A stretch of DNA of 63,492 nt, filler included, from Sphacelaria rigidula (Eukaryota): NCBI GenBank assembly GCA_964200075.2. It is 8 parts of 8 records of this genome, joined end to end, with 100 filler letters (N's around TTAATTAATTAA, not from the genome) between each part and the next. Parts side by side here need not be neighbours in the genome. Positions count along the whole stretch, not along the records: positions 39,747 to 47,595 come from CAXNAA020013244.1; 7 more parts are not named here. The stretch is one strand, 5' to 3'. Below, in pieces: positions 19,371 through 47,784 of this stretch. The notes beneath the pieces are model-generated. The model searched no databases. It was not told where the DNA came from and saw nothing but the letters and a program-made list of their open reading frames with translations. How positions within the stretch are numbered: position 1 is the stretch's first letter; each line of letters starts with the position of its first letter. Made by a program: the position numbers and the translations under genes.

Positions 19371-22300
19371 TTTTTTGGATAGATAATGTATAGCTGCTCT
19401 ACAAGCAGGTTCAGCTTGCTGTTCCCGGGCCCGATCGGCGTGAGAAAAGAGGGTCAGTGCCTTGAATACACTGTCGGCGGGGTTGTCCAAAACGCAGGGG
19501 ATCGAATCGCTGTGGGATGGACACGAGGCGTTATTTGGAACAAGGTCAGAAGGGGTGGTCAGTGTATTCTCAAACGGAACGTTCACCACTATTCTTACGT
19601 TGTGGAGGGTGTCGGATGGTGTGGTACCGGAGGTGGTACCATCACGGGGTGGAGGAGGCACAGTCGAGGTCGCGACCATGGTGGGCAGATGTGGTTTGGA
19701 AGGTGTCGATTTTCTGGGGGCTTTGCGCCGTGGAGGTAGCGGGAGCGCAAGGAGGCTATCGGGGACTGGAGTGGGGTTGGGGATTGGGAGGTCTGGGCCG
19801 GCTGCTGCCAGGGCGGCAGCCGTTTCCGCGGCCCGGCATCCTCGGGTCCGGCTCGAGATGAGGTCTCGGACTTGAACCGGGAGGACGCAGTCAGTAGGAA
19901 CCAGCTCTGCGTGCAAACCACCCGCCGGTAGTTGCACGAATTTCACTCCTAGCTGAACACAACGATCGTGGGGCCAAACTGCCCAATACAGAAGCGTGAG
20001 CCGAAGGCGTCAGCTTATTTTCAACAAGTGCCGAGTTGTGGTTCAGTGAGAGTGGAGTGTAGAGTCCGCGATGACCACTTGTGCTTATGAAATATACAAT
20101 GTCTTCGGTGAGATCTGTGATGTGACCCAAGGCGGAGTTGTCGATGGGTTGGGCTGGTAAGGACAAGCGTGACAGGAAGTCGGCGTTTGCGTTTTGGGGA
20201 CTTGTGCGGTACTTCAACGTGAAGCTGTGGGAAGACAGGATTTCAACCAGCGTTGAACCCGGGCGTTGTGTTACGCCATTTTGGCGAGGTTTTCCAAAGA
20301 CTTATGATCTGTATAAATCACAAACGGGAGGTCATAAAAATATTGCCGGAGCCGGCGCACTCCCCAAACAAGTGCACCTGCTTCTTGTTCCATAACGGAC
20401 CAGTTCTGTTTGTTTTGGGTAGGTGGTTCGGCTCAGATATACAATGGGGCGAACACTAGCATCGTCTTGTTCCTGTTCCAGTGTGCAGCCAAACCCAATT
20501 TTCGAAGAATCCGTGTGCAGTCGGAACGGACAGGAGCTATTTTCAGCAGCTGACCAGTCTGGAAAAACCAGAATTGGTGGCTTTGACAATGTGTCGAGCT
20601 GCTCTCGTACATGTGTTTCCATTGCCGACGTGAACACGAATTTCACCCCCTTCTTGAGGAGGGCGGTGAGAGGTTTTAGAGCTTGGGCTAAATTTGGCAG
20701 ATATTGACGGTAGTAACTCAAACCACCGAGAAAAGAGCACAATTGAGAAACATCGCGTGGCATGAGCATCTCTCTAAGTGCGGAAACTTTTTCGGGGTTG
20801 GGGCTACGACCTTCAGGGCTGATACAATGGCCTAGGAACTCGATGCGCGTGGCTCCAATGCGGGATTTGGATGGGGCGAGCTTCAAATTGTGTTGTTCAA
20901 AACGAGCAAAGAAGGACGCCAAATGTTCGACGTGCTCAGCAGGTATACTGCCATGAACCACCGCATCGTCGAGGCATCGTCGAGGTACATGCGGCATTTG
21001 GACAGTCCATCAATGACGCGAAACATCACACGTTGAAACGCTCCTGGGGCGCCGGCGGCACCTTGTGGAGTGACCAGCCACTCATGCAGACCTGACGGGG
21101 TGCAAAACGCCGTCAGCTCGATAGAGTGCGGATCCATCACCAGTTGGTGGTTACCGGACTGCATGTCGAAGTTCGAAAAAACTTTGCCCCCGCCGAGGGA
21201 GTCGATGATTTCATCCATCCAGGGAAGAGGTAGACGTGCGATTTTGGTGACTGCGTTTAATCGTTGATACTTGACGGTCAGTCGGATCTTAACATTCTTC
21301 TCCCGGAGGGCTACCAAAGGCGAGGCCCACGGAGACGTTGAGTGCTGTATTAACCCGGCGGACAAGTATTCGTCGAGAATTACTTGAATTTTACCCGCTA
21401 GAAGAGGGTTTGTACGGTACAGACGCATGGCGATAGGTGTCGTACCATCAGGGATATTGATTTTGAACGGTATAGTGTTGCAGCGGCCTAAATCTGTTGA
21501 CGATTTGGAAAACCGTTCAGAGTATCGTATCAAGATGTAGCGCAACCGAACAATTACCGTGGGTATCCAACCCTCACCAGATAAATCAAACGCAATGTGT
21601 CTCAAATGGGGGGGAATTTCATCCCATAATCGTTGAAAACTAACACGTTGCTCTGGCGAGAATGTATCGAGTAAGGCAGTCGGAGGGTTTGTGTCAGGCG
21701 TATCAGTCAATTCGTTTATAACCAGGGGATCAGTCTTGTCGAACGAAGTGGAACTGTTTGTCTCTGAGCTGTCTGATGATGTTTGCGGTGGCACCTTCAG
21801 ACATACATTCGACAAGGCTGCCCGTAGGAGAGGCGCTTGAGCAAAACCCAACAACTGACCAGGGAGGACATCGAGACATGCAGAGGATGTGAGGGGAATG
21901 GATTGCCGACCCTCATGGACGAATACATCGGTCTGATCAAAGGGGGGAATACTGTCGGGATTGGTTAAGTCGACCATGTACTGTCCAGTGAGGGCGGAGG
22001 ATCTGTTCCGTCTCCCAAGATTCACATGGATGTGTTGAGGTTCACCGGACAGAGAGACGACGTGATATCCAACATAATACAGTCGAAACGCATCACCTGT
22101 TTGTGTTGCGTCATCGGCATAGGCCTGAGCCCCTGGATCAGCGTCGTGATGTCCCAACTTCAATCTGCCTGTCAGTGGTCGGTTGAAAACAGGGGACTTT
22201 GTCGTGTATGTATGTGTGGAAAAACGAAGCCAGCTATCACGTCCCAAGAGAACATCAACCGACATGGAACCATCGGGCACAGTGAGTGCCCACACAGCTA

Positions 22301-23848
22301 ATCGTGCAGTGGGACCCGTGTCATCGAAGAATTGCACACTTAGTTGTACTGAGTGATCAACCGTAAGGGGAGTGGCGGCACCAAACCCGCCAAAAACACG
22401 AGGCGGAACAGTAGAAAGGCAATGTTTGTCCGCTGCTCCAGCGTTCATCCTGTGTTGCCAGCAGCTGGCTGTGATGAAAGAGTGTGGCGAGCCAGTGTCG
22501 GGCAGGGCAACGGCCATCAAAGGGCGTGTTGCATGCACTCCACTATGTATACCTATTCGGGTTGTGGAGGAGACGTCATCCATGAGTGCAGTTCCACTTA
22601 CCAAGTCCGGGCTGTATTCCGACATATGATCTGTAGCCACATCGCTCTTGTGTTGTTGGGCAATGGTACTAAAATAGACTCGAGATTGATCCTCCGGAAC
22701 GAATGTGTTTTCCGAAGGGCCGTCGTGGCATGGAGGGTTTTGCAGAGCGTGTGGTGCAGTAGACGAAAGTTGGAGTTCGTACACAGTCAGGAATGGACGA
22801 CGCCTAGGAAAGGAAGTGGATGTGGATGTTTGCAATAATTGTTTGAAGCTATGAGAAACAGGGGAGAAACAGTCCTGATCGGACTGCAATTTGGACGGCA
22901 CAGCCGGGGTTTGTCCGGCACCATGAGACATACATGCAGGGCGTAGCGGTTTTACTGTCCCAACAGTTATCAACGCTACTTTATTCTTCAACATAGATTC
23001 CGAGGGGTCGGCAGGAAGCGGACCTAATCTGTTCAGAATCTGGGAAACACCGACCTGTTCTACGACAAGGCCTTCATCCGCTGTGCCCGGTACCCGGGCA
23101 CTTTCTTGGTGGGCGGATGCAGCGGCAACTACAGGTTTACTTTCAGTGTCATCCGGAAGAGCCTTCTCCTGGTGTCGCGTATAGCGCACTCTAGAGCCGG
23201 CTGTTCCAGGGGCTCTTGGGAAGTTGGCAAGGTCAGTCCGTTCGTGGCTAGACACGTGGCGCTTGGTCGGCACTGTCGCTTGGGGTTCCTTCCCAACCCG
23301 CTGAGCTACGGAAAGCAAGGGTTCGGCACTGGCGCGCATAGTACACGAAAAATTACGATCACCAAATAAAAGGGGACCGGGTACACGCGGAATTTCGCTC
23401 GCACGTGTTACCGGGTTCGACTGGACTCCTGAGTCCTTCTCGGGGCTGGGGAGTCTCTGTAAACGTTTTATCCTACGATGAACGGTCGTAGGGGTAACAG
23501 CTACCGTATCAGAAGATGTTCTGCTTCTAAGGCGGTAGGCGCTACGCTACACGACTGTCGATTCCGCGGGGCGATCGGATCCAACTAGCGTTGATTACTA
23601 CCACTCGGAAATACAACTGGATGATCAGATCCAGTATGAAAACACTGGGGTTGGTCATTGCGCATTTGGGAGTCATGCAATGTTGCACGGGACTGTGCTG
23701 TCATGGAACCCGTCATGACAGAACGGTCAACGCTAGCGTACCCACACCNNNNNNNNNNNNNNNNNNNNNNNNNNNNNNNNNNNNNNNNNNNNTTAATTAA
23801 TTAANNNNNNNNNNNNNNNNNNNNNNNNNNNNNNNNNNNNNNNNNNNN

Positions 23849-23979
23849 TGGCTAGAACGAACCCAAGCGTGGGAATGCCCAGCTTGTTGTTGTGCTCGGC
23901 GTCTCCCATTTCGATTTACGTGAAGATTTTGCCTCCCAAAACCATGTACTTTTTTGGGGGGGCTATCGTAGAAAGTGTC
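23849..23979. mobile_element. MITE family A right half, at contig start
   Basis: Ends GGGGCTATCGTAGAAAGTGTC. Confidence 0.8.
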
Positions 23980-25170
23980 TGCCCCAGTAGGAGCATATAT
24001 ACCCTACAATGAAGGTTGTGGCAACTCTATGCCGGAAAGCTACTCGTACCTTCAGGACCCTGGCACTCATGTGTTCGGGGGTGATGGCATCTGGACCCGG
24101 TGTGTTGGCGATAGACTCCTTGATGGCAAGGCCGACTCCGAGCATTCCCGGTTTCCCCCCGTCTCCATGACAGAGGCCGCTGCAGTGAACTATGTAGCCC
24201 GCTGCCGGTGCGTGAAAGGTTGTTCGTCCATCGCGACGCGTTTCTTGAAGGGCGACGAAATCACAGTCTTCCTTAGACGCAAAAAGCAGTAGGTTCTCTG
24301 CGTGGCCTGTGCCGTTGGAACCTCTCTCGGCTATGCTGCGTACATTCCACGTGGCCACCACCAGCTCTTTGGATCGAGTCTTCGCCCTTGCGGCAGCACG
24401 ATTCGCGTGAACCTGAGCTTTGTCGGCTCGCCGAGCTGGTCTTTTCCTCCTTCTCTTCCTTCGTTTTTCTCTGCCCCTTTCTTTCTGGTGTCTGATCCAG
24501 CGTTTTTGTACTACAATTCTCCGTTTCCGCGCACTCTTCCGCCCACGCTGGTTCATTCCTATCTGTTTCTGCGTGAGGTTCAGCGGACCTCGCGCACGTC
24601 CACCTCCACCAAGTCGGTCTTTATGCTTACACGCACGCCGTTGTCTGCTCTTAGAGCTACGGCAACAATGCTTTCGGCGGTGGCGATGAGTGATCGGATA
24701 AGCGGCCCCTTCCGGCAGGGGTAGGGCGTGTTCCGATTCCATCACCATGTAGCAGCACGTTTACGGGTGGTAAACACCGTACGGTGCAGTCAGGGACGCT
24801 GGCGCAAAGGGCATTCGAACCCACCCCACTGTGGTGCGCAGCAGGTAGATAGGAGGAGTTAATCTCCGCACAAGCCGAGTGTTGTACTCTTCCAGGGGCC
24901 GCTGCCTTAGCTGGTCTTTACCCGGTGACGGCGGTTCGGGTCTACGACCGGGAAAGGTACCGACTGTATCACGGGTGATAACCACCGTATGGCTTGCACG
25001 AGCAGGGATACGTGGAATGAGGAGTAACTGAGCTACCGCACGGGCGTCGTACGAAGTAGATTGACAGTAGATGTCACAGATATTCCGTACTAGCGGAATT
25101 GCTGCGTCTTTCCTTGGGCCGCTGCCGTCAGCCAGCCCAACCCGGCCTCAGCGCTCGGATCGAGGCTGGA
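23980..25170 (-). mobile_element. 5' part of a non-LTR retrotransposon (LINE, RTE-like): 5' UTR, basic N-terminus and AP endonuclease
   Basis: ORF 23963-24748 contains VVATWNVRS and FVALQETRR. The 5' boundary is approximate. Confidence 0.8.
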
Positions 25171-31976: not shown

Positions 31977-34900
31977 GCGGTACTGCTACAACAGGCCTCC
32001 CATGAGAGAAGTAACACCGCAGCTACGGTCGCTGCGGGTGCCCCTGGCCCCCGTGACTATCGTATCGTCGCTGCAGGTCCGCAGACGAGTGCAGAGTTCG
32101 TTGCCCGCGGGATAGTGGCGGGGACCTGTCTAGAAATCCACCCCCCGGCGTCGTATCTAAAGTCAGGGGTCACAGCTGCTGCCAACAATGAAAATGCGCG
32201 ATTTTGCCCCTCCGGCAGCGGCGGTGCCGGTGTCGGTTGTGGCGTGGATGACAGAAAGAAAGAGCGGGTGGCGTATAGCATCTCCGATGTCGAAGTAGAA
32301 AGGGGTGCTATCGGTACCAGGTCCGGTGAATACAGCGGCGGGGGCAGCCCTGGCGGCATTGGCAGGTTTGAGTCCTTGACAACAGTCGCAGCGATGACGA
32401 ACGATACCTCGAGGATGAGGGATGAGGGAACGTTGGAGCCTTCAGCAACGCTAGACTACGGAAGTGATGCAGCTGGAGCTGATGTCGTCGACTCTGGAGC
32501 AAAGACGGCGTTGTCGTCGTCGGGAGTAACAACAGCACCAAGGGCAGTAGACAAAGATGGACCAAGAACAAGAACCACGAGCACTACGGGAGTGGATGGT
32601 GGGAGTAAGACAGCTCCGGACTCCAATTCTGTCTCCAGGAGGCAGCGGAGCAAGCTGCCGTTGCTGCCGATCAAACCACCGACGCATGGGTTCCATCTCG
32701 TGGATCTGCACGCGGTCGTGCGCAACTCCGTAGAGTGGCGTACCTGGTTGCCCAAGGTATTGTGAAAAGGGTACAAGAGTAGCGTTTAATAGTACGCCCG
32801 ACGGAGATATCTTTCTCAGAATGATCGGTGTCCTTTGTAGCGCTGGAAGTGTGAAAAGCAGCGACACAAGAGACAAAATTGAGTGCCTCGTCGTGGCAAT
32901 GTTCCAAAGGTGGTACAGTCTATCGGAACTTGAAGGTAACGGCCGGGATCGGCGATTGGGATGCTTCAGGTGTGCGTGTGTTTGTAGCAGACGACGCGGC
33001 GGTATTCCCGTCGCTCCGTCTACAAGTGCCGTGCCTCACCATGAGGGTCAGATGTTGCGTGGCAACTCTAATGTAGTCGGAGTTGGTGTCCCCCCAACAT
33101 ATTATTTTCGTTCTGAAATAAACCACGCGGCACACCGGCGCAAAGACGTTCGTAGAACAGCAGCCTGCGTACAAGACGCCAGCAGTCGAAACACACTTTG
33201 AACACTTTCTACGACAGCCCCCCCCCCAAAAACAAACAAACAAATAACCCAAAGCTGTCTCGAAACAAATGATCATACAGCGCCTGATGTTGGGTTCAGG
33301 TTGCATGAAGTGTCTCTCATGTAGGCGACATTGACGAGAACGAACCCAAGCGTTGGAATTCCCAGCTGTCCGTTGTGCTCGGCCTTTTCCATTTCGATTT
33401 ACGTGTAGATTTTGCCTCCCCAAACCAGCCACGTTTTTCCGGGGGGGGGGGGGGGGGGGTGTTTTAGAAAGTTTTTTTTTTGGTTTTTTTTTTCGTTTAA
33501 TTTTTCCCCTACTGCGGGCACAGGGGGAGCCAGTCTTNNNNNNNNNNGTTGTCGGTGTGGGGGTGCTCTGGGTTTGTGTGGTGGGGGGGAGTTTGGCCCG
33601 GCCGCTCGCGGCGTGTGGGGGGGGGGGGGGGGGGGGGGGGGCTGTTGTAGAAAGTATCTTTATTGGTTGTTCATTTCGTCTAATTGTGCCCCTACGTCGC
33701 GAACAGGTAGAGCCAGTCTTCCGTGTTGGCGACAACCGAGACACGGTCTTGCTGGGGCTCGTTCACGCTCTTGGCGGGCGTTTGTCTTGCTCGTCCAAGC
33801 ATGACATCAAGGCCGGAACGTATGCCACACGGAGTGTAAGCCGATCGCCTCAGGCTTCCGTCACCACACCGCTGCGTCTCTTCGATCGCCACATTTGCCG
33901 CCCTCCTGCGCTGTTGCGGGCAGCAGCGATGGCTGGGGTCAGCTTGTACGAGGTAATGATTTTAGTTACCCCTGCCGCCGCCGCCGCCGCCGCCGCGCCT
34001 ACCGTGAAGCTGAGAGCACTTTTGATACCATTGCGAGTTTTGTGTTGGTTGATTCCTTGCATGTAGTATTTTAATTGCAACAAGTCATCACTTGCTACAT
34101 GGTGCTTATCTTCAGGGTTTCCGTTCCTGTCCCACCTCACTTTGCCCCCTTGTACCAGGTCGACTGCGTCGATGAGTTGTGCAGGATTGCGAAGGCCAGA
34201 CATCGTACAAGCATCTCCGCCACTCGACCGTCCACCACAGCAGTGTCCAGCATCGACGCAATTCCTCGCAAAGAAGAGGTGTCGAAGGTTGCAGCGCAAC
34301 GACCACCTGTCGAGCACCGAGCGACCGGTGCGACCCCCGGTAGCGGCAGTGGTGTCTACGATGTAGCAGAGGCCCTCATTCGTCTCACTGTGCCTCCCCG
34401 CATTCCGCGAGTTCAGGTTCCCGGCGTGACTTCATGTCAGCCGTCTTCGCTCCAGGACAAGACCTTGTCGACTCCGCTGGAGACAAATTTTGGTGCAAGC
34501 TTTGACGGTGTAGTTGAGATCGTACAGAGGGTGGCAGCAACAATGGCGACAAAGCCGAGTGCCGTGCAAGGTACTGCGAGTAGGGGTGGCGAAAGCGGGC
34601 GCCATTGCCGTGGCGACGCAATTGACGACGGTGCGTGTCGAACACGTGGCGGCGCTCAGTGTCGTCCTTGGGCTAGCTTCTTTCCGTCGATTGTCGGTTT
34701 CTCGATCGATGTAGGGCAGGTGTGCTTGGATGACGCTATCGCAGCGGAGGCCGCGTTGGAGGTAACAACAGCAGAAACGCCAACAGCGGCAAGCATGTGG
34801 ACCATCAAGGATCCTGTCAAAGATAGTACTGTTGGCTCTGCTTATACTCCCGCCCCAGAGGCTGCCGTCCGGTTACCTCCGGGACAAGCAGTCGCCTCCG

Positions 34901-36021
34901 CCACCTTAGCAGAGGACATCGAGGCCGCTGTTGTGTTCGCGATGGAGGCAGCCCGCCGTGCAACCAACGCTTTTGCGGCAGCCGCGGCGAAAAACGGCGA
35001 ACAAGCTGCATCAAGGGATAGCCATGTCGCTCCTCGTGGGGCGTGCACCAGCGCAGCACAATCGCCGCCTTTTTGTTTTCGCCGGTTGCATATAACGGGG
35101 CTGGGTAACGGGGGCGCGCGTGGAGAGCCTCTGGCGGCGCTGAAGACAGCTCTGTCTCGGCACCTACCCGCGCTGCTCGCCCGCAGCACGGGAGCATCGA
35201 ATAGCGTTGGTGGTGGTATCGGCATAAGCAGACCTCTGTTGGTTTCAGCTGACGCCACCGAACATTTTGTCGCTGGGGGCGTGTGTTCCACTGCTGCATC
35301 CATCATCGGCCGTAAGGATGTGGTTTCTGCAATCTCTAATGACCCTACGCCGTCGTCAACGCCGCCGACGCCGCCATGTGATCGTCACAGCCATGACACT
35401 GGCGACAATAAAAATGAACATGTTGTTGTTCGCGAGGCGGGTAATGAGGCGGCGACGACTAAAGAAAACGGCCCAACTTGCAATGTGGGCGAGGGGCGAT
35501 CGGGAGCGATGTATTACATAGACGATGGCTGCTACGGATCCTTAAGCGGCGCATTGCTCAGGGCGGAGCCTGTGCAGCCCATACCTTTGGTTGATCCTCG
35601 TCGTCAAAGGTCACCGACTGGCCCATATTGTTCCAAACGTCGACCTGATGATGACAACGTCACCTACGAATACCAGTATCATTATCATCATCGGCAGCAA
35701 GAGCAGCGGGGTGAACCCACCGCTAAGCCGCCCGGCACTGCCGCCAGTTCATCGGGCGACAAATTACACATCTCTGCCGCTGCTTCCGCTGCACCGTGTA
35801 CGATCTGGGGGCCGACTTGTGATGGTCTGGATTGCGTATCTCGAGTTACCCTTCTGCCGGCCGAACTGAGGCCAGGAAGAGATTGGCTCTTTTTCCCGGA
35901 GCGAGGCATGCGGGCCGGGGCCGATGTGTCTGGCTTCAACGGGCTAAGGCCACTTGAGTCGATTTACTGCGTTCGGCAGTCGGGCGCTTCGCTTTCTGCC
36001 GCCCCTTTCGAACGACAATAA
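31977..36021 (+). CDS. Ornithine decarboxylase-fold (fold-type III PLP family) protein, predicted unable to bind PLP; exons 31977-32756, 33707-33952 and 34159-36021; 5' exon(s) lie outside the contig
   Basis: Three phase-0 exons with canonical AG/GT sites give an open frame of 962 aa. Colinear ODC motifs: GFHLVDL...WRTWLPK/VEPVFRVGDN, SCSSKHDI, VDCVDEL, ALIRL, TNFGAS, VGFSIDVG, YYIDDGCYGS, TIWGPTCDGLD, DWLFF...SGFNG. Confidence 0.9.
33202..33472. mobile_element. MITE family A copy in an intron of the ODC-like gene
   Basis: Starts ACACTTTCTACGACAGCCCC and the body matches 41754-42001. The right end lies in low-quality sequence near the small N gap. Confidence 0.75.
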
Positions 36022-39125: not shown

Positions 39126-41753
39126 TCGATGTTTGCTCCTACTGATGATATACTTTCATGCAATTTAACTACAACAAGCTCAGCAGCTTCAGTGTATAAC
39201 CAATCCTTTCGTCAGATTGAGAATCCAGCGTTTGATTGGGATTGAGCTTTTGATAGGAAGACGCTGCTATTATGTGAGCCAATAATGGACGACACACTGG
39301 CGTCTGGATGTCGCGTGTAATGGTGCCGATTCAGCAGATCAACTACCGTAGCGGTCACGGGGTGATAAGAATGACGTTGCGGAACACATTAGGTCAAAGA
39401 GTCGTTAGCTGCACCAGGACTAATGGGGAACGATACGCGTTTTACTGAGATACCACTAATAACCGTCGGCATGAGAATGTTAACCATCGAAGTATTCCTC
39501 TCGTTCATGCGCCGCTCGATGCATGCGAGTGTAGGACATTAACGCATCGCGATTTCTAATAATCGTATGCTCGTGTTCATTTGCTTTCGGATTATATATT
39601 AACAGCCGATCATCTATGTTGAGGATGGTGCTTTTGATTGAGGATGNNNNNNNNNNNNNNNNNNNNNNNNNNNNNNNNNNNNNNNNNNNNTTAATTAATT
39701 AANNNNNNNNNNNNNNNNNNNNNNNNNNNNNNNNNNNNNNNNNNNNGGAATAAAACAAATGACTCACTTCAAGCGAATGATCAAAGCCATTCTCAATCGT
39801 ATCATCTACTCTCAATCTCACGAAAACACTGTTAGTAGCGCAGTGCAGAATAAAATATTACCATCGCATCAGAGTACGGCGTTAACACTTCTTATCCGCT
39901 TGGCGAACCCCGTGCAAAGCGCCGTGCAAAGCGCAGCTCTGCGAGCATAGACAGTTAAGTAGGGCAAAGTTGCAAATACAGACTGGACTCGCGAACACAG
40001 GAAATACTATGCGACAAAAAGTACAACGATACGAGTACACATACTCTGCACCCTAAAAACCTCGCATTTGGCAGCGATGTTATCGGCTATGTTTGTGGTT
40101 CTACACCATCTAACGGGAGGACTCACCTTGATATATGTTGGCACCGATTTCCTGGCCGGTTCGTGGTTGCTCTCTACTCTATCCCTATGCAAAGCTTCAC
40201 GAGTAAATGAACCAGGAAGTCGATTATGGGTCGTGGTTGCTCTCTTCTCTATCCCTACGCAAAGCTTCACGGGTCAAAGAACCGGGAAGTTGATTACGTA
40301 CTTCAACACCCCCTCTACCTCAGCCACGGACGGCGTCGGCACGCGAAAGTGAGGACAACGAATAAAGCAGCAATGAAGCTGAACATTGTTGAGGGTGTTG
40401 AAAATGATCCGGAAAGCCGGTCGTTGCGTGTGATGCCTCCAACCTCCAAAAGTACCTCGATCGAAGTCGCGACAGTTAAGTCTGATAAGTTCAATCAAGA
40501 CTCGCTCTGGTCAAAAGAAGTTGAATTGGGAATGATTCGAGTGCGCCCAGAGACAGAGACAAAACACAACGCCATGAGCACCAATGAAGCTGAAACTTGT
40601 TGAGGGCATCTCGATTGATGTTAGAAGAGTAAAGGGATAGGTCTTTCGCGCAACGCGGCTTCGAATCAAATCGGGAGGGAAAGTGCGTGGTTCGGAGCTC
40701 TATAATGAGGCCCGGACAGATAGGACAGGACACTTTTTGAACTTCGGTTCAGTAGAAGCCTTTTCAGCCCTAAGGTCCTCAAAGGAAATTTCTACTTGTT
40801 TGCCTTGAGAAGCGGCCTCAGAGGGTATGAAAACAACGATCAGCTAAATACCAGAGGTAGCGGTTCGCCAATTATCGAATGTTGTTGAGATCTGCTTGAG
40901 CTCAGTTAGTGGTGTCGAACAAAGTTGACTCCAAGGACAAGTCACCAACTACCCGGTCTCCTACACGAGCTTGACAACCACCACTATTCACTTTGGGGGC
41001 AACATGTCTCGGTGTCAGTACGAGTTGAGCCAGCCTAAAAACGAATTTATACTCTCAAGGCGATATCTCAACGACACAGACGAGTTGGGCCATGATCCGC
41101 ATATCGTCTCATCAGGGGGAAGGTGCTCATCTGCTCAAAACTCTGGGCCAATTTTTTGTCCTTGATTTAACTCCATGTCTAGTAATTCCTATACCGTACG
41201 GAAATAGTGTCCACACTAAACTCTATATGGAACCCCGAACGATCTATTGAGCGGATAATGGCGATTGTTGTCGAGGACCTTCCCTGGAACATGAGATGAT
41301 CCCCTCACCTGCCTCTGATTCGTAATCGATCTCGACATATGGCGCACAAACGATTCCGTACTAAACTCAATAATTTACGAGCAGAGGCACTAGATGCCCT
41401 AAATCTGGATATCGCGTCTCAGTTGTTGAGAGTCGTGCGGTGGAATTTAGTATGGAGAACCGCTAGTGTATAATACAGCTTATTCACACAGCTTTTAAGT
41501 TATTTTTACGTTTTTTCGTGTTTTTAGGAGTGTTTTGAGAAGAAATGAACATTACTCTTGGGCCTTATCTCAATTTTGAGAGTTGTGATTTGAAACTTGG
41601 CATGGAGAACGACAGAGGTATCCTCAATAAAAAAAGCAAATGGGCCTTAATTTGTTCTTCTCGGGGGGGAGAGGTTCGGGCGTTTTCGTGAAAAAATGGT
41701 CGTCACCATACTAAAACGCCCTAAATCAGCAAAACAAATGAATCAAAACCAAC

Positions 41754-42001
41754 GACACTTTCTACTATAGCCACCCCAAAAGAAGTGCATGGTTTTGGGA
41801 GGCAAAACTTTCACGTAAATCGAAATGGGAAAAGCCGGGCACAACGAGAACCAGGGAATTCCTACGCTTGGGCTCGTTCCAGCTAATGTCGTCAATATAA
41901 GGCGCTTCATGCAGCCTGAACCCCAACATCAGGCGCTGTATGGCCATTATTTTCGTGACACTTTTAGCTGGTTCTGGGGTGGGGCTATCGTAGAAAATGT
42001 C
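41754..42001. mobile_element. Complete MITE family A copy, 4-bp TSD CAAC
   Basis: TIR GACACTTTCTACTATAGCC / GGCTATCGTAGAAAATGTC; CAAC at 41750-41753 and 42002-42005. Confidence 0.88.
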
Positions 42002-42136
42002 CAACCTGATCCATTTTTCTTGGTTCATCACGACCTGGCGAGGCCCCCGCACGAAGTTTCGAAACATAAACACCAAACGTGGGCCGATAAACGGCCTGCA
42101 AAATGTTGTTCCGAATTTCCGCCGGCCCAGTTTTCA

Positions 42137-42419
42137 CAAGCCGAATTCGCAATTTTTTCTTAGAGTTGGCCAGTGAATTTTCTCATGGACCAATAACAGG
42201 GCATGAAGAAAAGCTGTCTGTGGGGTCCCGAAGGTTTCTGCTATGTTTTTCATGAGATACGGGCAGTAATCAGTCTTGGGGTTTTTGTAAAATGCCCCAA
42301 ACTCACCGAGAGAAAGAAAAACTTCGCGACCCCACAGACAGCTTTTCTTCATGCCCTGTTGATTGTCCATACCAAATTTCACTGCCCAACTCCAAGAAAA
42401 AAAAATGCGAATTCGCCTG
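42137..42419. mobile_element. Inverted-repeat element (MITE-like, ~100-bp arms)
   Basis: CGAATTCGCA...AACAGGGCATGAAGAAAAGCTGTCTGTGGGGTC is mirrored by GACCCCACAGACAGCTTTTCTTCATGCCCTGTT...TGCGAATTCG. Confidence 0.8.
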
Positions 42420-43278
42420 CAAACTACGAATCCGCGTCTAGGCTGAGCCAGCCTGTACAGTATCGGAAATCACTGTCATGTCGACTTCAGTGTTGCCTGC
42501 ACATCAACTCTCTAGTGTTGCTGATATCTACTTGGGCTTGGTGATATCGAAAAGAGTTCACGCATGGGAGGAGTCATGACTACCCCCATTTCAGCGTTGA
42601 CTACTTTTCAAACTCCAGGGCGCCCGGAAGGCCTAGCTTCTGCCAAGTGGGAGGTGCGGAGGGGTACTAGGGTGTCCAAAGTCCTGGTCTACACGGGAAT
42701 CGGTACACGGAACACCAACCCAAGCTACCTACCCTATCTCACATGTAATCGTCATGTCCTATACGCGACAGTCGCGCCGCAACGCGGTATTTGGCTGGTC
42801 AATGTCGGCTCTATCGAGTAGTCGAAACGTTCGATGCCCCCCGCTCGTCGTACATTGTCAACGCGCACTTGTGCCGCTACACACACCCCCGATCCCCATC
42901 ATGTGAATCGCGACGGAGGCGACAGTCGTGCAAGCAGCGCAATGACCACCACTGTGCCATCCCTGCAAGATGAGTTGCCCAGAACGATGAAGGTACCAGC
43001 AAAAACATCACATATGAGCTTGGAGGAACGGCACACAAAGCGAGAAGCACCAACAAACTACAGAAATGATCAAAATACCCCAGAGCGCCGTGATACACAC
43101 GAATGATTCAGCGGAGTCCTACCCCCGATCGATTACTAAACAAAGTACCGTCCAGTCCGGAACAACATAACTTGTATTTATCGTTGTGATACGAACCCGC
43201 ACACAGCACGGGAAAATGTCGAAACGGCACCATCGATGTCAGCTGCGAAATCGCGCGTGAAAAGATCGCCACATCAAG

Positions 43279-45894
43279 CTATTTCTTTCGCCGGTCGGAT
43301 ACCGTCCCATTACCATAACTAGAGGGGGCGGACACTCCCAACTCGAACTTGACGTCGCCATCCTCTCCAGACACGAACCCATCTCCCACTGTCGTATCGG
43401 ATGGCGATTCCATCGGGCCCACTCTACGCAGCCGCTTGGCACTCTTCCTTGTACTGGCGTTGCTTCTACCGCTGCTCCTGTCTATGACGTCGCTGAGTTT
43501 GCCGTTGGCCATGGTGCCATGCACAATAGATCGCGTAGTGCCCAGTCCGTTGCTCGCTGCTACCCCTTCACAACGACGGGTTGGAGAGAGGGTCATCTCC
43601 ATCTTCACCTTCATGCGCGACGCTGCCCCATCAAGACAAACACCATCAACTGACGAATCGCCGGCTTGCTGTCCCCAGGGAGCAGGCGGCGTGGTCGTGG
43701 AATTAAGGTTAACTCGCCTAGAACGATTGGCACACGAGCTACGAAGAGTACCGAGGTGATGACCATCGCGGCTTGCGTTGCGGCCGGCACCGTACGGATG
43801 GTTGAGGTTGCTACCATCCTCCATGCCCCGCCTTTTGCCGTTTACCGTGACCATGCCCGCCCGAGCGTGCGCGGTGAAGAACTCAGCCTCCTTGTCACCG
43901 GCCACACCGAATGACGACTGTGTGGTGCAGCTCTCTTCGCCGCACGTCTTGCCTTTTACATGGACCATGCCCGCCCGAGCGTGCGTGGCGCAAAACTCTG
44001 CCTTTTTGCTACCGGCTACACCGAATGACGGTGATGTCGAGCAGCCCTCTTCTCTGCACGTCTTGCCTGTTACATAGACCATGCCGGTCCGAGCGTGTGT
44101 GGCGCAATACTCCGCCTTCCTGCTACCGGCCATGCCAAATGATGGCAGTTTGGAGCAGCCCTCTTCGCCGCATGTTTTGCTTCCTACATTGACCATCCCC
44201 GCCCGAGCGTGCGTGGCGCAATACTCCGCCTTCCTGCTACCGCGTGTGCCGAATGACAGCTGCGTGGAGCAGCCCTCTTCGTCGCAGGTCATGCTTCCTA
44301 CGTTGACCATCCCCGCCGGAGCGTGTGTGGCGCAGTACTTCGCTTTCCTGCCACGGGCTACACCGAATGACGGCTGTGCGGAGCAGCCCTCTTCGTCGCA
44401 CGTCATGCATCTTACGTTGACCATCCCCGCCCGAGCGTGTGTGGCGCAGTACTTCGCTTTCCTGCCACGGGTTACACCGAACGACGCCCCAGTGGAGCAA
44501 CCTTCTTCCTCACAGATCTTCTTTCTCACATCGACCATGCTGGCCCGAGCGTGTGTGCCGCAGAACTCCGGCTTCCTGCTCCCGGCTACACCGAATGACC
44601 TTCGTGTCGAGCAACCCTTTTCGCCGCACGTCTTGCTTCTTACATCGACCATACCGGCTCGAGCGTGCGTAGCGCAGAACTCTGCCTTCCTGCTACCGGC
44701 TGCGCCGAATGACCGCCATGTGGAGCAGCCCTCTTCGCCGCATGTGTTGCCTTTTACATGGACCATCCCCGCCCGAGCGTGTACGGCGCAATACTCCGCC
44801 TTCCTGCTACCGGCTGCGCCGAATGACGGCTGTGTGGAGCAGCCCTCGTCGACGTACCTCTTGCTTTTTACGTTGACCATGCCCGCCCGAGCGTGTGTGG
44901 CGCAAAACACCGGCTTCCTGCTACTGGATACGCCGAATGACGGCTGTGTGGAGCAGCTCTCTTCGACGCAGGTTTTACTCGCTACATTGACCATTCCCGC
45001 CCAAGCGTGTGTAGCGCAAAACTCCGCCTTCCTGCTACCGGCTACACCGAATGACGGCCATTTGGAGCAGCCTTCTTCCTCACAGATCTTGCTTCTTACA
45101 TCGACCATGCCGGCCCGAGCGTGTGTGGCGCAAAACACCGGCTTCCTGCTACCGGCTACACCGAATGACCGTCGTGTCGAGCAACCCTCTTCGACGCACG
45201 CCTTGCCTATTCCGTTGACCATCCCCGCCGGAGCGTGTGTGGCGCAGTACTTCGCTTTCCTGCCACGGGCTACACCGAATGACGCCCCAGTGAAGCAGCC
45301 TTCTTTCTCACAGATCTTGCTTCTCACATCGACCATGCTGGCCCGAGCGTGTGTGCCGCAGAACTCCACCTTCCTGCTACCGGCTACACCGAATGACGGC
45401 TGTATGGTGCACCCCTCTTCGCCGCACGTCTTGCTTCTTAGGTTGACCATCCCCGCCGGAGCATGTGCAGCGCAAAACTCCGCCTTCCTGCTACCGGCTA
45501 CACCGAATGACCGCCATGTGGAGCAGCCCTCGTCGCCGCACGTCTTGATTCTTATGTTGACCGTGCCGGCCCGAGCGTGCGTAGCGCAATACTCCGCCTT
45601 CCTGCTACCGGATACGCCGAATGACGGCTGTGTGGAGCAGCTCTCTTCGACGCAGGTCTTACTTGCTACATTGACCATCCCCGCCCGAGCGTGCGTAGCG
45701 CAATACTCCGCCTTCCTGCTACCGGATACGCCGAATGACGGCTATTTGGAGCAGCCCTCTTCGCCACACGTCCTGCTTCTTATATCGACCATGCCGGCCC
45801 GAGCGTGTGTAGCGCTGAACGCCGCTTTTCTTCTGTCCACTATGCCATGTGATGCCCTCTCGGGGCCGTCCATGTGGGCACATGGAACAGGCAT
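43279..45894 (-). CDS. EsV-1-7 domain (Cys/His repeat) protein: intronless, 17 x 38-aa repeats plus a low-complexity tail; in-frame TAG at 45742-45744 (possible pseudogene or null allele; the 799-aa ORF 43279-45678 remains open)
   Basis: 114-bp tandem unit encoding MVxVxxKxCxEEGCxxxxSFGxxGSRKAExCATHARAG (C-X4-C-X16-C-X2-H), typical of EsV-1-7 repeats. Likely ATG at 45894 (MPVPCAH...). Confidence 0.88.
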
Positions 45895-47784
45895 CCCCCT
45901 CACGGCTGTATTAACAGCACTATGTAGGGCGCAGGAGTCCCGCCGGTACTCACATGCACAACTCTACACACCCCAGCACGAGAACCAGCCTGACAAATCC
46001 AGCAGCAACCTGCATCAATCGACCACAAAATGTAACTTTGAGTCGTGTATGAAGGGGACGTATATGAACCATGATTCAAGCCAAACGGCGGCGAATAGAT
46101 ATGTGAACTGGGGTATTGGGACAACTCAATGTAGGGTTCAACAGGCGAGACAAAAATCGGCACCGTTTTGGTCAAAAGGCGAGAGCTGATAGAGCTGATA
46201 CCGTTACAAAGCTACGGTAGGGCTAATAGACATGGGACGAAGTGCCTGACGCAGAAGGTCTACAACTATCGTGCTCGGATCGTACAGCTTAGATCGTCTA
46301 TGTCATTTCCGTGCCCACAGGACTGGTTCAACAAACGACACGCGACCGACCACTGTGCTGTGTGCGTCTAACCTCAAACGTGATACACGTGAGTAACGTC
46401 AGTTCCACGTGCATAATACCTCTCAGTCATGAACGCTGGACATCGTAATTCCATACGACTTGAGTGAAGTTCAAAAGGCGGGCAGCATACGCGGTTTATC
46501 CCGTGCTTGGCGTGCTGCCATGCGCTTCTGGAAGATACTGTACTACCGTGCACTTTTTCCTGTGCCAAAAACCCTTTTGTTTACTTCTTCTTGGCGAGCC
46601 TTCTCGCTCATTCACGTGGAGTACATCCACTTTCTGACCACGGCCGGATTCATCGCGAATCCCGTTCGCGTGTGACGATTAACTTATGTGATAATCTGGG
46701 GTAAGTGTGTACTGCGGGCGATGACGGTACGGATTGTTAGCTACTGCACGAATACCGCGTCACTCGAACCGCACAGTGCATGGTGACAGAAAACAATAAT
46801 TACTCGCCTCCCTACCCTTGGAGTATCAAACGAATTATATAGTAAACAATGTCTGCGTGAGATCGGGGGTAGAGGATACGATTGAGAATGAAAAGCGATC
46901 AATTAGTGAATGAACCGTTTCAGTTCCGAAGTGCTCCTCCACGAGGCCCGATATTCGTCCTGTAGTAGCTTGCCACTGAGGCTCTTGATATCCCTGAGTG
47001 GGATATCGACGTGTAGCTGTAAGCACACGGCAGTGATGGGGGCAAAGAAAAGCACGCATGGAATTACAAATTGGCCACTCTCAACCCGCGCTCTACTCTC
47101 AATCTCACGACAAGGTTGTGAGTAGTTGAAATTGAGTGTGGATGCTAGAATCCGGGTTCAACGTAGCTGATTGGAGAGCTCTCTTTCATTTCTTCCCCTG
47201 ATGGTACAGTATCATAATGCTGATTCTCCACGTCGGGATCGTCCCACACCAGGGTGGTGCGCCCAAATGAGCCCGACCTCTCGAACCTGTGGTCACAGAC
47301 GTAAGCTCGCCTTCCTTTTCACCGTCACTACCATACCATCTTTGCATGACATGGAATCGCTCATTTAGCGTCGTATTCTGCGACTCCGAAAACCAACCAA
47401 TATGTACATGTATCATTTCACTTTTTCTCCACTTTTGCCGAGTTTTCTCAGGCGGCAGGGCATCTCATCACGCGCTTTCTTTTGCAGTGCACGAAAAAGG
47501 CGCAGCGGTACATTACCTTTCAGGTTCGGGTGTCATCTGATACCTGCGGCGCGTGTTCTGGCCATCGAAACTCGCCCGCACTGGCTCTTTTTCCCNNNNN
47601 NNNNNNNNNNNNNNNNNNNNNNNNNNNNNNNNNNNNNNNTTAATTAATTAANNNNNNNNNNNNNNNNNNNNNNNNNNNNNNNNNNNNNNNNNNNNCGTCC
47701 CGGCATTGTAGGGATGCGAGGTCAATGGTGTTATGACTATGGCATGCATGATCATGAGTACACCCCCCCATCGTAGGATGACTC

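Follow-up and report, generated by a model that had tools for sequence, protein, structure and literature searches.

The locus described here raises the question of what a long array of EsV-1-7 repeats binds, and which of its residues decide this. It lies on the minus strand of a 63,492-nucleotide window (the whole stretch of DNA analysed, filler included: 8 parts of 8 records of the genome assembly GCA_964200075.2 of the brown alga Sphacelaria rigidula, joined end to end), within the part at positions 39,747 to 47,595 that comes from CAXNAA020013244.1. A reading of this DNA from its sequence alone (the sequence-only reading) had described 17 repeats with a variable, reused pair of residues and had likened that pair to the code of TAL effectors. 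The comparisons reported here point to three fast-evolving positions per repeat. On balance we consider it probable that the protein is nuclear and binds specific DNA sequences through an array that is under diversifying selection, in the manner of KRAB-ZNF proteins and PRDM9, and that it has an effector tail tagged by SUMO.

A repeat search of the window finds a tandem array at 43848-45815, with a period of 114 bp and 17.3 copies. The minus strand from 45792 to 43855 encodes 17 in-register repeats of 38 amino acids (aa) each, with the period of 38 kept throughout, which bears out the number and length first claimed. Pfam recognizes PF19114 (EsV-1-7) in 17 stretches (E 4e-241, 778.9 bits against a cut-off of 25) and, apart from a cumulative SBP score discussed below, no other domain above cut-off in the array. 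The units and their fastest codon are located as follows:

43855..45792, minus strand: 17 EsV-1-7 repeats, from period, translation and Pfam; codons 5, 6 and 17 of each unit are fast
45744-114(k-1) to 45742-114(k-1), minus strand: codon 17 of repeat k

All four ligands, C9-x4-C14-x16-C31-x2-H34, are kept in 15 of the 17 repeats, so the motif ascribed to every repeat holds for these and not for repeat 9 (C9Y) or repeat 17 (C31F), each of which has lost one ligand. The invariance of the ligands suggests that the repeats bind zinc. To call the repeats near-identical was an overstatement, with pairwise differences of 8-35 of 114 nucleotides (nt). Translation reproduces exactly the residue pairs listed before the SFG motif, and their reuse inside this gene seems largely a product of whole-repeat duplication: the two GA repeats, 5 and 12, are 8 nt apart, the QP repeats 2 and 8 are 9 nt apart, and the RR repeats 6 and 11 are 14 nt apart. 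Variability within the array is greatest at position 17 (2.42 bits), followed by positions 5 (2.16), 10 (2.06) and 18 (1.82; P9, R4, A2, L1, S1), and the mean net charge per repeat is +2.3.

Selection at three positions of the repeat

Among EsV-1-7 genes this one is ordinary, and its closest named homologues are proteins of S. rigidula. A Pfam search of the genome (244 Mb) gave 4,575 first-look candidates, 150 of which were scored; among the matches listed, the repeat occurs on at least 132 contigs. Our sample consists of 80 arrays, 40 of them the closest relatives of this gene and the other 40 taken from the Pfam search, and 70 of the 80 run in one frame with no internal stop (the first unit was not scored). 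From 1,312 candidate repeats, 1,108 were retained that are in register, have all four ligands and contain no stop. For 780 of these the nearest neighbour lies within their own array, which indicates concerted evolution.

Position 17 has an entropy of 3.52 bits in the set near this gene and 3.10 bits in the other set, where position 6 reaches 3.30 bits. Its residues are chiefly Q (252), R (240), H (140), K (90), L (74), Y (69) and W (39), and acids are found there in 9 of the 1,108 repeats, whereas positions 33 and 37 have 96 and 90 acids, respectively. Position 18 is P in 857 repeats, A in 135 and S in 67. The mean net charge across the family repeats is +2.9 per repeat, in agreement with the basic scaffold noticed at the outset.

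The ratio of nonsynonymous to synonymous change (dN/dS) was estimated by counting changes along spanning trees built without the tested codon, for the 76 arrays with at least six repeats (1,092 repeats); the four ligand codons have a value of zero by the retention filter. The bootstrap interval lies above 1 at just three of the 38 codons. These are codon 17 (1.68, interval 1.47-1.91), codon 6 (1.47, 1.32-1.66) and codon 5 (1.45, 1.26-1.64), and at codon 17 the estimate is 2.33 in the subfamily nearest this gene and 1.37 in the other set. Codon 3 has a value of 0.85. With a value of 0.47, position 18 is by this measure under purifying selection, as is the remaining scaffold, and the variable unit is one residue rather than a pair. 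Of the reused variable pair, then, the first residue is indeed fast, while the second is mostly proline and slow and the reuse is largely copying; the second variable patch, seen after the residues MV, corresponds to codons 5 and 6. Codon changes of two or three bases are also most frequent at position 17 (325 of 1,016 tree edges, compared with 60 for position 18).

Comparison with neutral repeat copying had been set beforehand as a check on this variation. We simulated arrays with mutation and gene conversion in which sites 5, 6 and 17 were neutral, using nine parameter sets. With free synonymous sites the neutral values range from 0.6 to 1.1 overall, and from 0.61 to 0.94 at position 17 for matched divergence; the observed values at positions 17, 5 and 6 exceed them. 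Synonymous constraint of 30% raises the simulated range at position 17 to 1.01-1.10 and constraint of 50% to 1.29-1.35, so that the observed value at position 17 is above every neutral case run. Diversifying selection at position 17, together with positions 5 and 6, forms part of the joint reading given above, which we hold as a whole with a little better than even confidence.

CpG hypermutation as the source of the exchange among R, Q and W was ruled out on two grounds. A fourfold CpG bias left the simulated dN/dS at position 17 unraised (in an earlier run, at higher divergence), and 5-methylcytosine is negligible in Ectocarpus (PMC12477816).

Some paralogues are nearly uniform at the fastest position. 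The arrays L081, L082, L092, L097, L100 and L104 have almost one or two residues at position 17 (being R-, Q-, L- or Y-rich), and L092 has Q there in 17 of 19 repeats. If position 17 reads one base per repeat, such arrays would target periodic or simple-repeat DNA.

Tail motifs, nuclease fusions and the ligand

The repeats are followed by a tail in which the sequence-only reading had pointed to stretches resembling nuclear localisation signals and to two psi-K-x-E motifs. All are present, and they are conserved in paralogue tails:

43282..43854, minus strand: low-complexity tail, 191 aa, candidate effector region; no Pfam match (0 families), with homologous tails in paralogues
43597..43608, minus strand: psi-K-x-E motif 1, VKME, predicted SUMO site, conserved in subfamily tails
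43423..43449, minus strand: basic stretch RKSAKRLRR, predicted nuclear localisation signal with a conserved core
43342..43353, minus strand: psi-K-x-E motif 2, VKFE, predicted SUMO site, conserved in both subfamilies
43282..43293, minus strand: basic stretch RRKK, from the tail translation

Among 31 tails of the subfamily, VKME retains its K in 81% and its E in 97% (median column 55%), VKFE retains K in 100% and E in 90%, and the K-R-L-R core of the basic stretch is conserved at 94/94/87/87%. The second subfamily (38 tails) also has a K-R-x-R core, and its VKFE motif keeps K in 95% and E in 87%. Over both subfamilies, the motif K and E and the K-R-x-R core are 81-100% conserved, as against 50-55% for the median column. 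Complete tails of at least 100 aa are available for 69 of the 80 loci; 68 of these have at least one psi-K-x-E motif and 55 have two or more, giving 124 in total where shuffles give 6.8. Further afield, the motif is found in 10 of 27 long-tailed homologues that do not bear the name Sphacelaria and are not fused to a nuclease (14 observed against 3.3 expected), Pylaiella and Ectocarpus proteins among them, and is absent from the other 17. Tails of nuclease-fused homologues have 11 where 18.9 are expected. Both SUMOylation and nuclear import of the tail are predicted from these motifs, and SUMO-tagged transcription factors often repress.

What the array would bind is suggested by the other contexts of the repeat. 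Of 173 homologues found, 120 were listed, and 63 of these carry a PD...E-x-D-E-x-Q-H domain at the C-terminal end, with invariant PD and E-x-D-E-x-x-H residues. The nuclease-fused homologues share the alphabet of position 17 (R113, Q74, I35 and H26 of 358). An AlphaFold2 model of one of them has a predicted local distance difference test score (pLDDT) of 89.5 and a predicted template modelling score of 0.48. Its C-terminal domain matches the Vsr endonuclease (Z 8.9, root-mean-square deviation (rmsd) 3.1, 114 residues aligned) and the homing endonuclease I-Bth0305I (Z 8.1, rmsd 3.2, 94 aligned). This wide fold search covered residues 389-533 of the homologue, that is, the nuclease part, and barely sampled the repeat fold; a Foldseek search of the model against solved structures gave nothing at E 0.001. 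Viral matches of the modelled homologue include proteins named Endonuclease and EsV-1-7 itself. For the repeat, neither sequence nor profile searches of solved structures turned up a relative, and an Atlas search returned PF19114 clusters only, mostly viral.

Genes joining the repeat to the nuclease were found on 79 giant-virus loci, with a major capsid gene within the flank in 24 and an RNA polymerase subunit gene in 17, a neighbourhood that would fit free-standing homing nucleases. In the capsid-adjacent nucleases, position 17 is variable even among close orthologues. One giant-virus subfamily (L190-L209) keeps a conserved position head to head with the major capsid gene; among its close orthologues, some repeats have a fixed residue 17, whereas in other repeats this residue is highly variable. 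A second fusion is known from Ectocarpus, in which a Tc1/mariner transposase bears an EsV-1-7 domain at its N-terminus (PMC12477816). Fusion to a nuclease and to a transposase, exclusion of acids and positive charge together argue for nucleic acid as the ligand.

In the mechanism we propose, the 17 predicted zinc-binding repeats would bind DNA in a row, and residue 17 with residues 5-6 of each repeat would set the sequence read by touching bases. The conserved tail would carry the protein into the nucleus and, once tagged with SUMO, would recruit repressors. Specificity would be retuned by repeat duplication, conversion and selection, acting on several residues per finger and not on one pair per base, and the targets would be transposons or viral inserts. 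We infer DNA as the ligand, base contacts by the three positions, SUMOylation, repression and the nature of the targets from the patterns above and from known systems.

Several observations weigh against this proposal. Under 50% synonymous constraint, neutral sites reach 1.29-1.54, a range that takes in the values at positions 5 and 6 but not the one at 17. The dN/dS estimates come from counting changes and not from a codon likelihood model, and the paralogues are related. Changes between close repeats are also frequent at positions 3, 36 and 37 (105, 93 and 75 of 382 pairs, against 116 at position 17). Pairs 5-17 and 6-17 are among the better non-ligand couplings, but their shuffle-controlled mutual information is weak (z 3.0 for 6-17 and 0.8 for 5-17); a single surface patch formed by positions 5, 6 and 17 was considered and is not claimed. 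On the structural side, RNA-binding RAP-type domains match the nuclease part at Z 7.4-7.7, within about 1 Z of I-Bth0305I, and an AlphaFold2 model of four repeats of this gene with 58 paralogue stretches has a pLDDT of 31, which does not place residue 17. A collinear scan of 18 distinct capsid-adjacent nucleases (21 loci) showed no residue-to-base register (best z 4.83 against a null of 4.44-6.66, in a test of low power with the true target presumed only). The specificity of I-Bth0305I lies mostly at the cleavage site, with little from its repeat arm (PMC3239194). Finally, the Ectocarpus protein IMMEDIATE UPRIGHT (IMM) acts in development, and not all members of the family need silence transposons.

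The RAP-type matches, which score near Vsr for the fused domain, bear on the idea that the array binds RNA, with an aromatic or basic residue 17 stacking on or reading single-stranded bases, as in PUF, PPR or CCCH fingers, and that the protein acts on nuclear transcripts. The prevalence of W, Y, H and R at position 17 (488 of 1,108) and the exclusion of acids would suit this, and nuclear and SUMO motifs would suit nuclear RNA proteins as well. We nevertheless think RNA unlikely, since the fused domain keeps PD and E-x-D-E-x-x-H, its top two structural matches are DNA endonucleases, and the other known fusion partner is a DNA transposase.

About equally unlikely, in our estimation, is that the array is a generic, basic DNA-gripping arm or scaffold, with positions 5, 6 and 17 as exposed, relaxed loop sites whose patterns are the outcome of duplication, conversion and chimeric assembly. 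Within this gene the reuse of pairs does track repeat copying, some genes have runs of one residue at position 17, the viral nucleases give no code signal, strong synonymous constraint can mimic the dN/dS of positions 5 and 6, and repeat 1 of the assembled stretch looks chimeric (see below). However, position 17 exceeds all nine neutral parameter sets and has the commonest multi-base codon changes, and a relaxed site should admit the acids that are so rare there.

Less likely again is a protein-binding recognition surface, such as an immune or anti-viral sensor or decoy comparable to fungal HIC repeats or Ectocarpus LRR-ROCO genes. Site-specific diversifying selection in homogenised repeats is typical of such receptors, and the repeat is also present in giant viruses; against this, Pfam finds no signalling domain in the protein, such as an NTPase or a kinase, and the exclusion of acids, the positive charge and the nuclease and transposase fusions suggest nucleic acid. 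The least credible is a strict cipher of the TAL effector type, with residues 17-18 naming one base per repeat, which is largely refuted as stated: position 18 varies in this gene alone and is coupled to position 17 (z 5.7, 1,108 repeats), but such coupling is expected from adjacency, position 18 is elsewhere mostly proline under purifying selection, positions 5 and 6 are as fast, position 17 is near-uniform in some arrays, and the negative register scan, with the small contribution of the I-Bth0305I repeat arm, weighs against any simple cipher.

The gene, its transcript and its surroundings

The gene starts upstream of the array as first noted, and its inferred coding sequence is a single exon:

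43279..45894, minus strand: coding sequence, one exon, 871 codons plus stop; ATG at 45894 inferred; interrupted at codon 51
45793..45894, minus strand: degenerate N-terminal repeat 0, a possible capping unit
45742..45744, minus strand: in-frame TAG, codon 17 of repeat 1; public runs have TGG (Trp) here
46010..46011, minus strand: 3' splice acceptor tgcAG of an intron in the 5' untranslated region; the exon begins at 46009, with loose contig ends
42461..43278, minus strand: probable 3' untranslated region; RNA-like contigs of runs X1-X3 reach 42461-42476, and contigs do not fix the transcript end

The M-P start in repeat 0 recurs among paralogues and homologues, and a degenerate first unit resembling repeat 0 is found in many paralogues. 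Just 5' of the start, many paralogues have (CAG)n runs (L041, L045, L049, L050, L051, L066, L067 and L069); a CAGCAG motif 5' of brown-algal coding sequences is analysed in a preprint (bioRxiv 10.64898/2026.04.27.720984).

RNA-like contigs of runs X1, X2 and X3 cover 42461-46011 and leave the genome at the tgcAG acceptor, past which they have 33-74 extra letters that match nowhere in the window. They lack 46064-46846, a span covered by run X5, and runs X5 and X6 read on through 46385-46860. The tgcAG context also precedes the array in many paralogues. No upstream exon was located in the window or the genome assembly, which has gaps nearby. Runs X1-X4 are RNA by a guess only, and a single study produced the three in which the junction is seen. 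These contigs suggest that the gene gives a spliced transcript with an intron in its 5' untranslated region, and it is likely to be expressed.

The TAG would make this a pseudogene, a reading ruled out by the TGG in the read contigs: position 45743 has C in place of T in the one long spanning contig of each of runs X1, X2, X5 and X6 (two studies). From the middle of the TAG codon on, repeat 1 of the assembled stretch matches repeat 2 letter for letter over about 60 nt, which indicates that the stop is either a chimera of assembly or polishing or a strain-specific conversion. The repeat order in the assembled stretch is thus possibly chimeric and not secure. Contigs of the runs also deviate from the window at several array sites (44185-44352 and 45616-45725), and one steps back by about one repeat; these deviations may be allelic repeat differences or collapsed copies.

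Elsewhere in the window, a large exon at 34075-36021 on the plus strand encodes the C-terminal sheet domain of a pyridoxal-dependent (ornithine/diaminopimelate/arginine) decarboxylase (E 5.5e-11), and is probably part of a gene spanning long open frames from about 28966. Broken retroelement pieces lie on the minus strand at 20883-23546 and 23963-24760, with matches to RVT_1 (E 2.2e-9) and to the endonuclease/exonuclease/phosphatase domain (E 5.8e-8). Frames at 2.3-7.8, 17.5-21, 25.8-27.2 and 55.7-56.7 kb look integrase- or gag-like by eye and have no Pfam match where tested.

Related systems and significance

The gene shares its repeat and ligand spacing with the EsV-1-7 family (PF19114), which includes Ectocarpus IMM and the virus gene EsV-1-7. 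It has 17 repeats where IMM has five, and there is no room for the IMM-specific N-terminal domain, because the inferred coding sequence starts at repeat 0. The giant-virus nucleases have the same repeat and the same position-17 alphabet as the algal gene, and their repeats sit where I-Bth0305I, a Vsr-like enzyme of the EDxHD type, has NUMOD DNA-binding repeats (PDB 3r3p, 1cw0; PMC3239194). Unlike them, the algal gene has a motif-bearing tail in place of a nuclease, and probably an intron, and the PD...EVDExQH domain is absent from its 191-aa tail.

Like the animal KRAB-ZNF, FiNZ-ZNF (PMC10547256) and PRDM9 arrays, of which it would be a convergent analogue, the family is large and lineage-specific, carries its tandem fingers in a single exon, shows positive selection at a few sites in each finger and has a conserved accessory module that lies beyond the repeats. 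The animal fingers are C2H2 and 28 aa long, whereas those here are of C3H type and 38 aa, and the animal module is an N-terminal KRAB or SET domain, whereas here it is a C-terminal tail of short motifs; Pfam finds neither a C2H2 finger nor a KRAB domain in this protein. Targets and repression are proposed here by analogy with the animal arrays. TAL effectors likewise consist of tandem repeats of about this length, each with a hypervariable spot within an otherwise conserved frame, and they too carry a basic signal at the C-terminal end. They differ in being helical hairpins with an adjacent pair, as against a Cys/His ligand motif with three fast sites and no evidence of one base per repeat, and the TAL repeat family has no Pfam match in this protein at E 0.1.

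The first zinc site of the SBP domain presumably has the same spacing as the EsV-1-7 repeat. Pfam SBP positions 1-36 match the array cumulatively (42.9 bits), but no single stretch is significant by itself, and no SBP entry came up when solved-structure sequences were searched with profiles. Both are of the Cys3His ligand type (PMC5768680), and kinship with SBP is a lead only. Among the homologues, P0005 passes the Pfam cut-off for the WRKY19 zinc finger and P0064 that for the coronavirus nsp13 zinc-binding domain, each on cumulative score, and P0007 is listed with them; the WRKY19 and nsp13 matches probably reflect Cys/His spacing only.

The family, its expansion (95-335 genes per brown-algal genome; Denoeud et al., bioRxiv 10.1101/2024.02.19.579948), its rank as the biggest orthogroup of these algae (bioRxiv 10.64898/2026.04.27.720984), its links to viruses and the suggestion that its proteins are zinc-finger transcription factors (PMC12629598, citing Macaisne 2017) are already in print. 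In the EsV-1-7 literature searched, which excluded the founding paper and preprint supplements, we found no report of selected sites, a code, a SUMO-type tail or a nuclease fusion. The three selected codons per repeat and the conserved tail motifs therefore appear to be new.

A bolder proposal, which we put forward tentatively and regard as doubtful, is that brown algae built a surveillance system like that of KRAB-ZNF proteins from the targeting arm of a giant-virus nuclease, independently of animals. It would comprise hundreds of arrays that read DNA by a per-repeat code at positions 5, 6 and 17, are retuned as transposons and integrated viruses evolve against them, in an arms race, and silence these targets by way of a tail SUMOylated at two sites. 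The means by which brown algae keep transposons silent, given that they lack cytosine methylation and H3K9/H3K27 marks, is described as largely unknown (PMC12477816). With three residues per repeat and two tail lysines named for mutation, both this question and that of the family's ligand become open to direct tests. If there is a code, a 38-aa finger that occurs in nature joined to nucleases and to a transposase would make a new targeting module and, were the bolder proposal true, the EsV-1-7 repeat would be a new programmable DNA-binding module.

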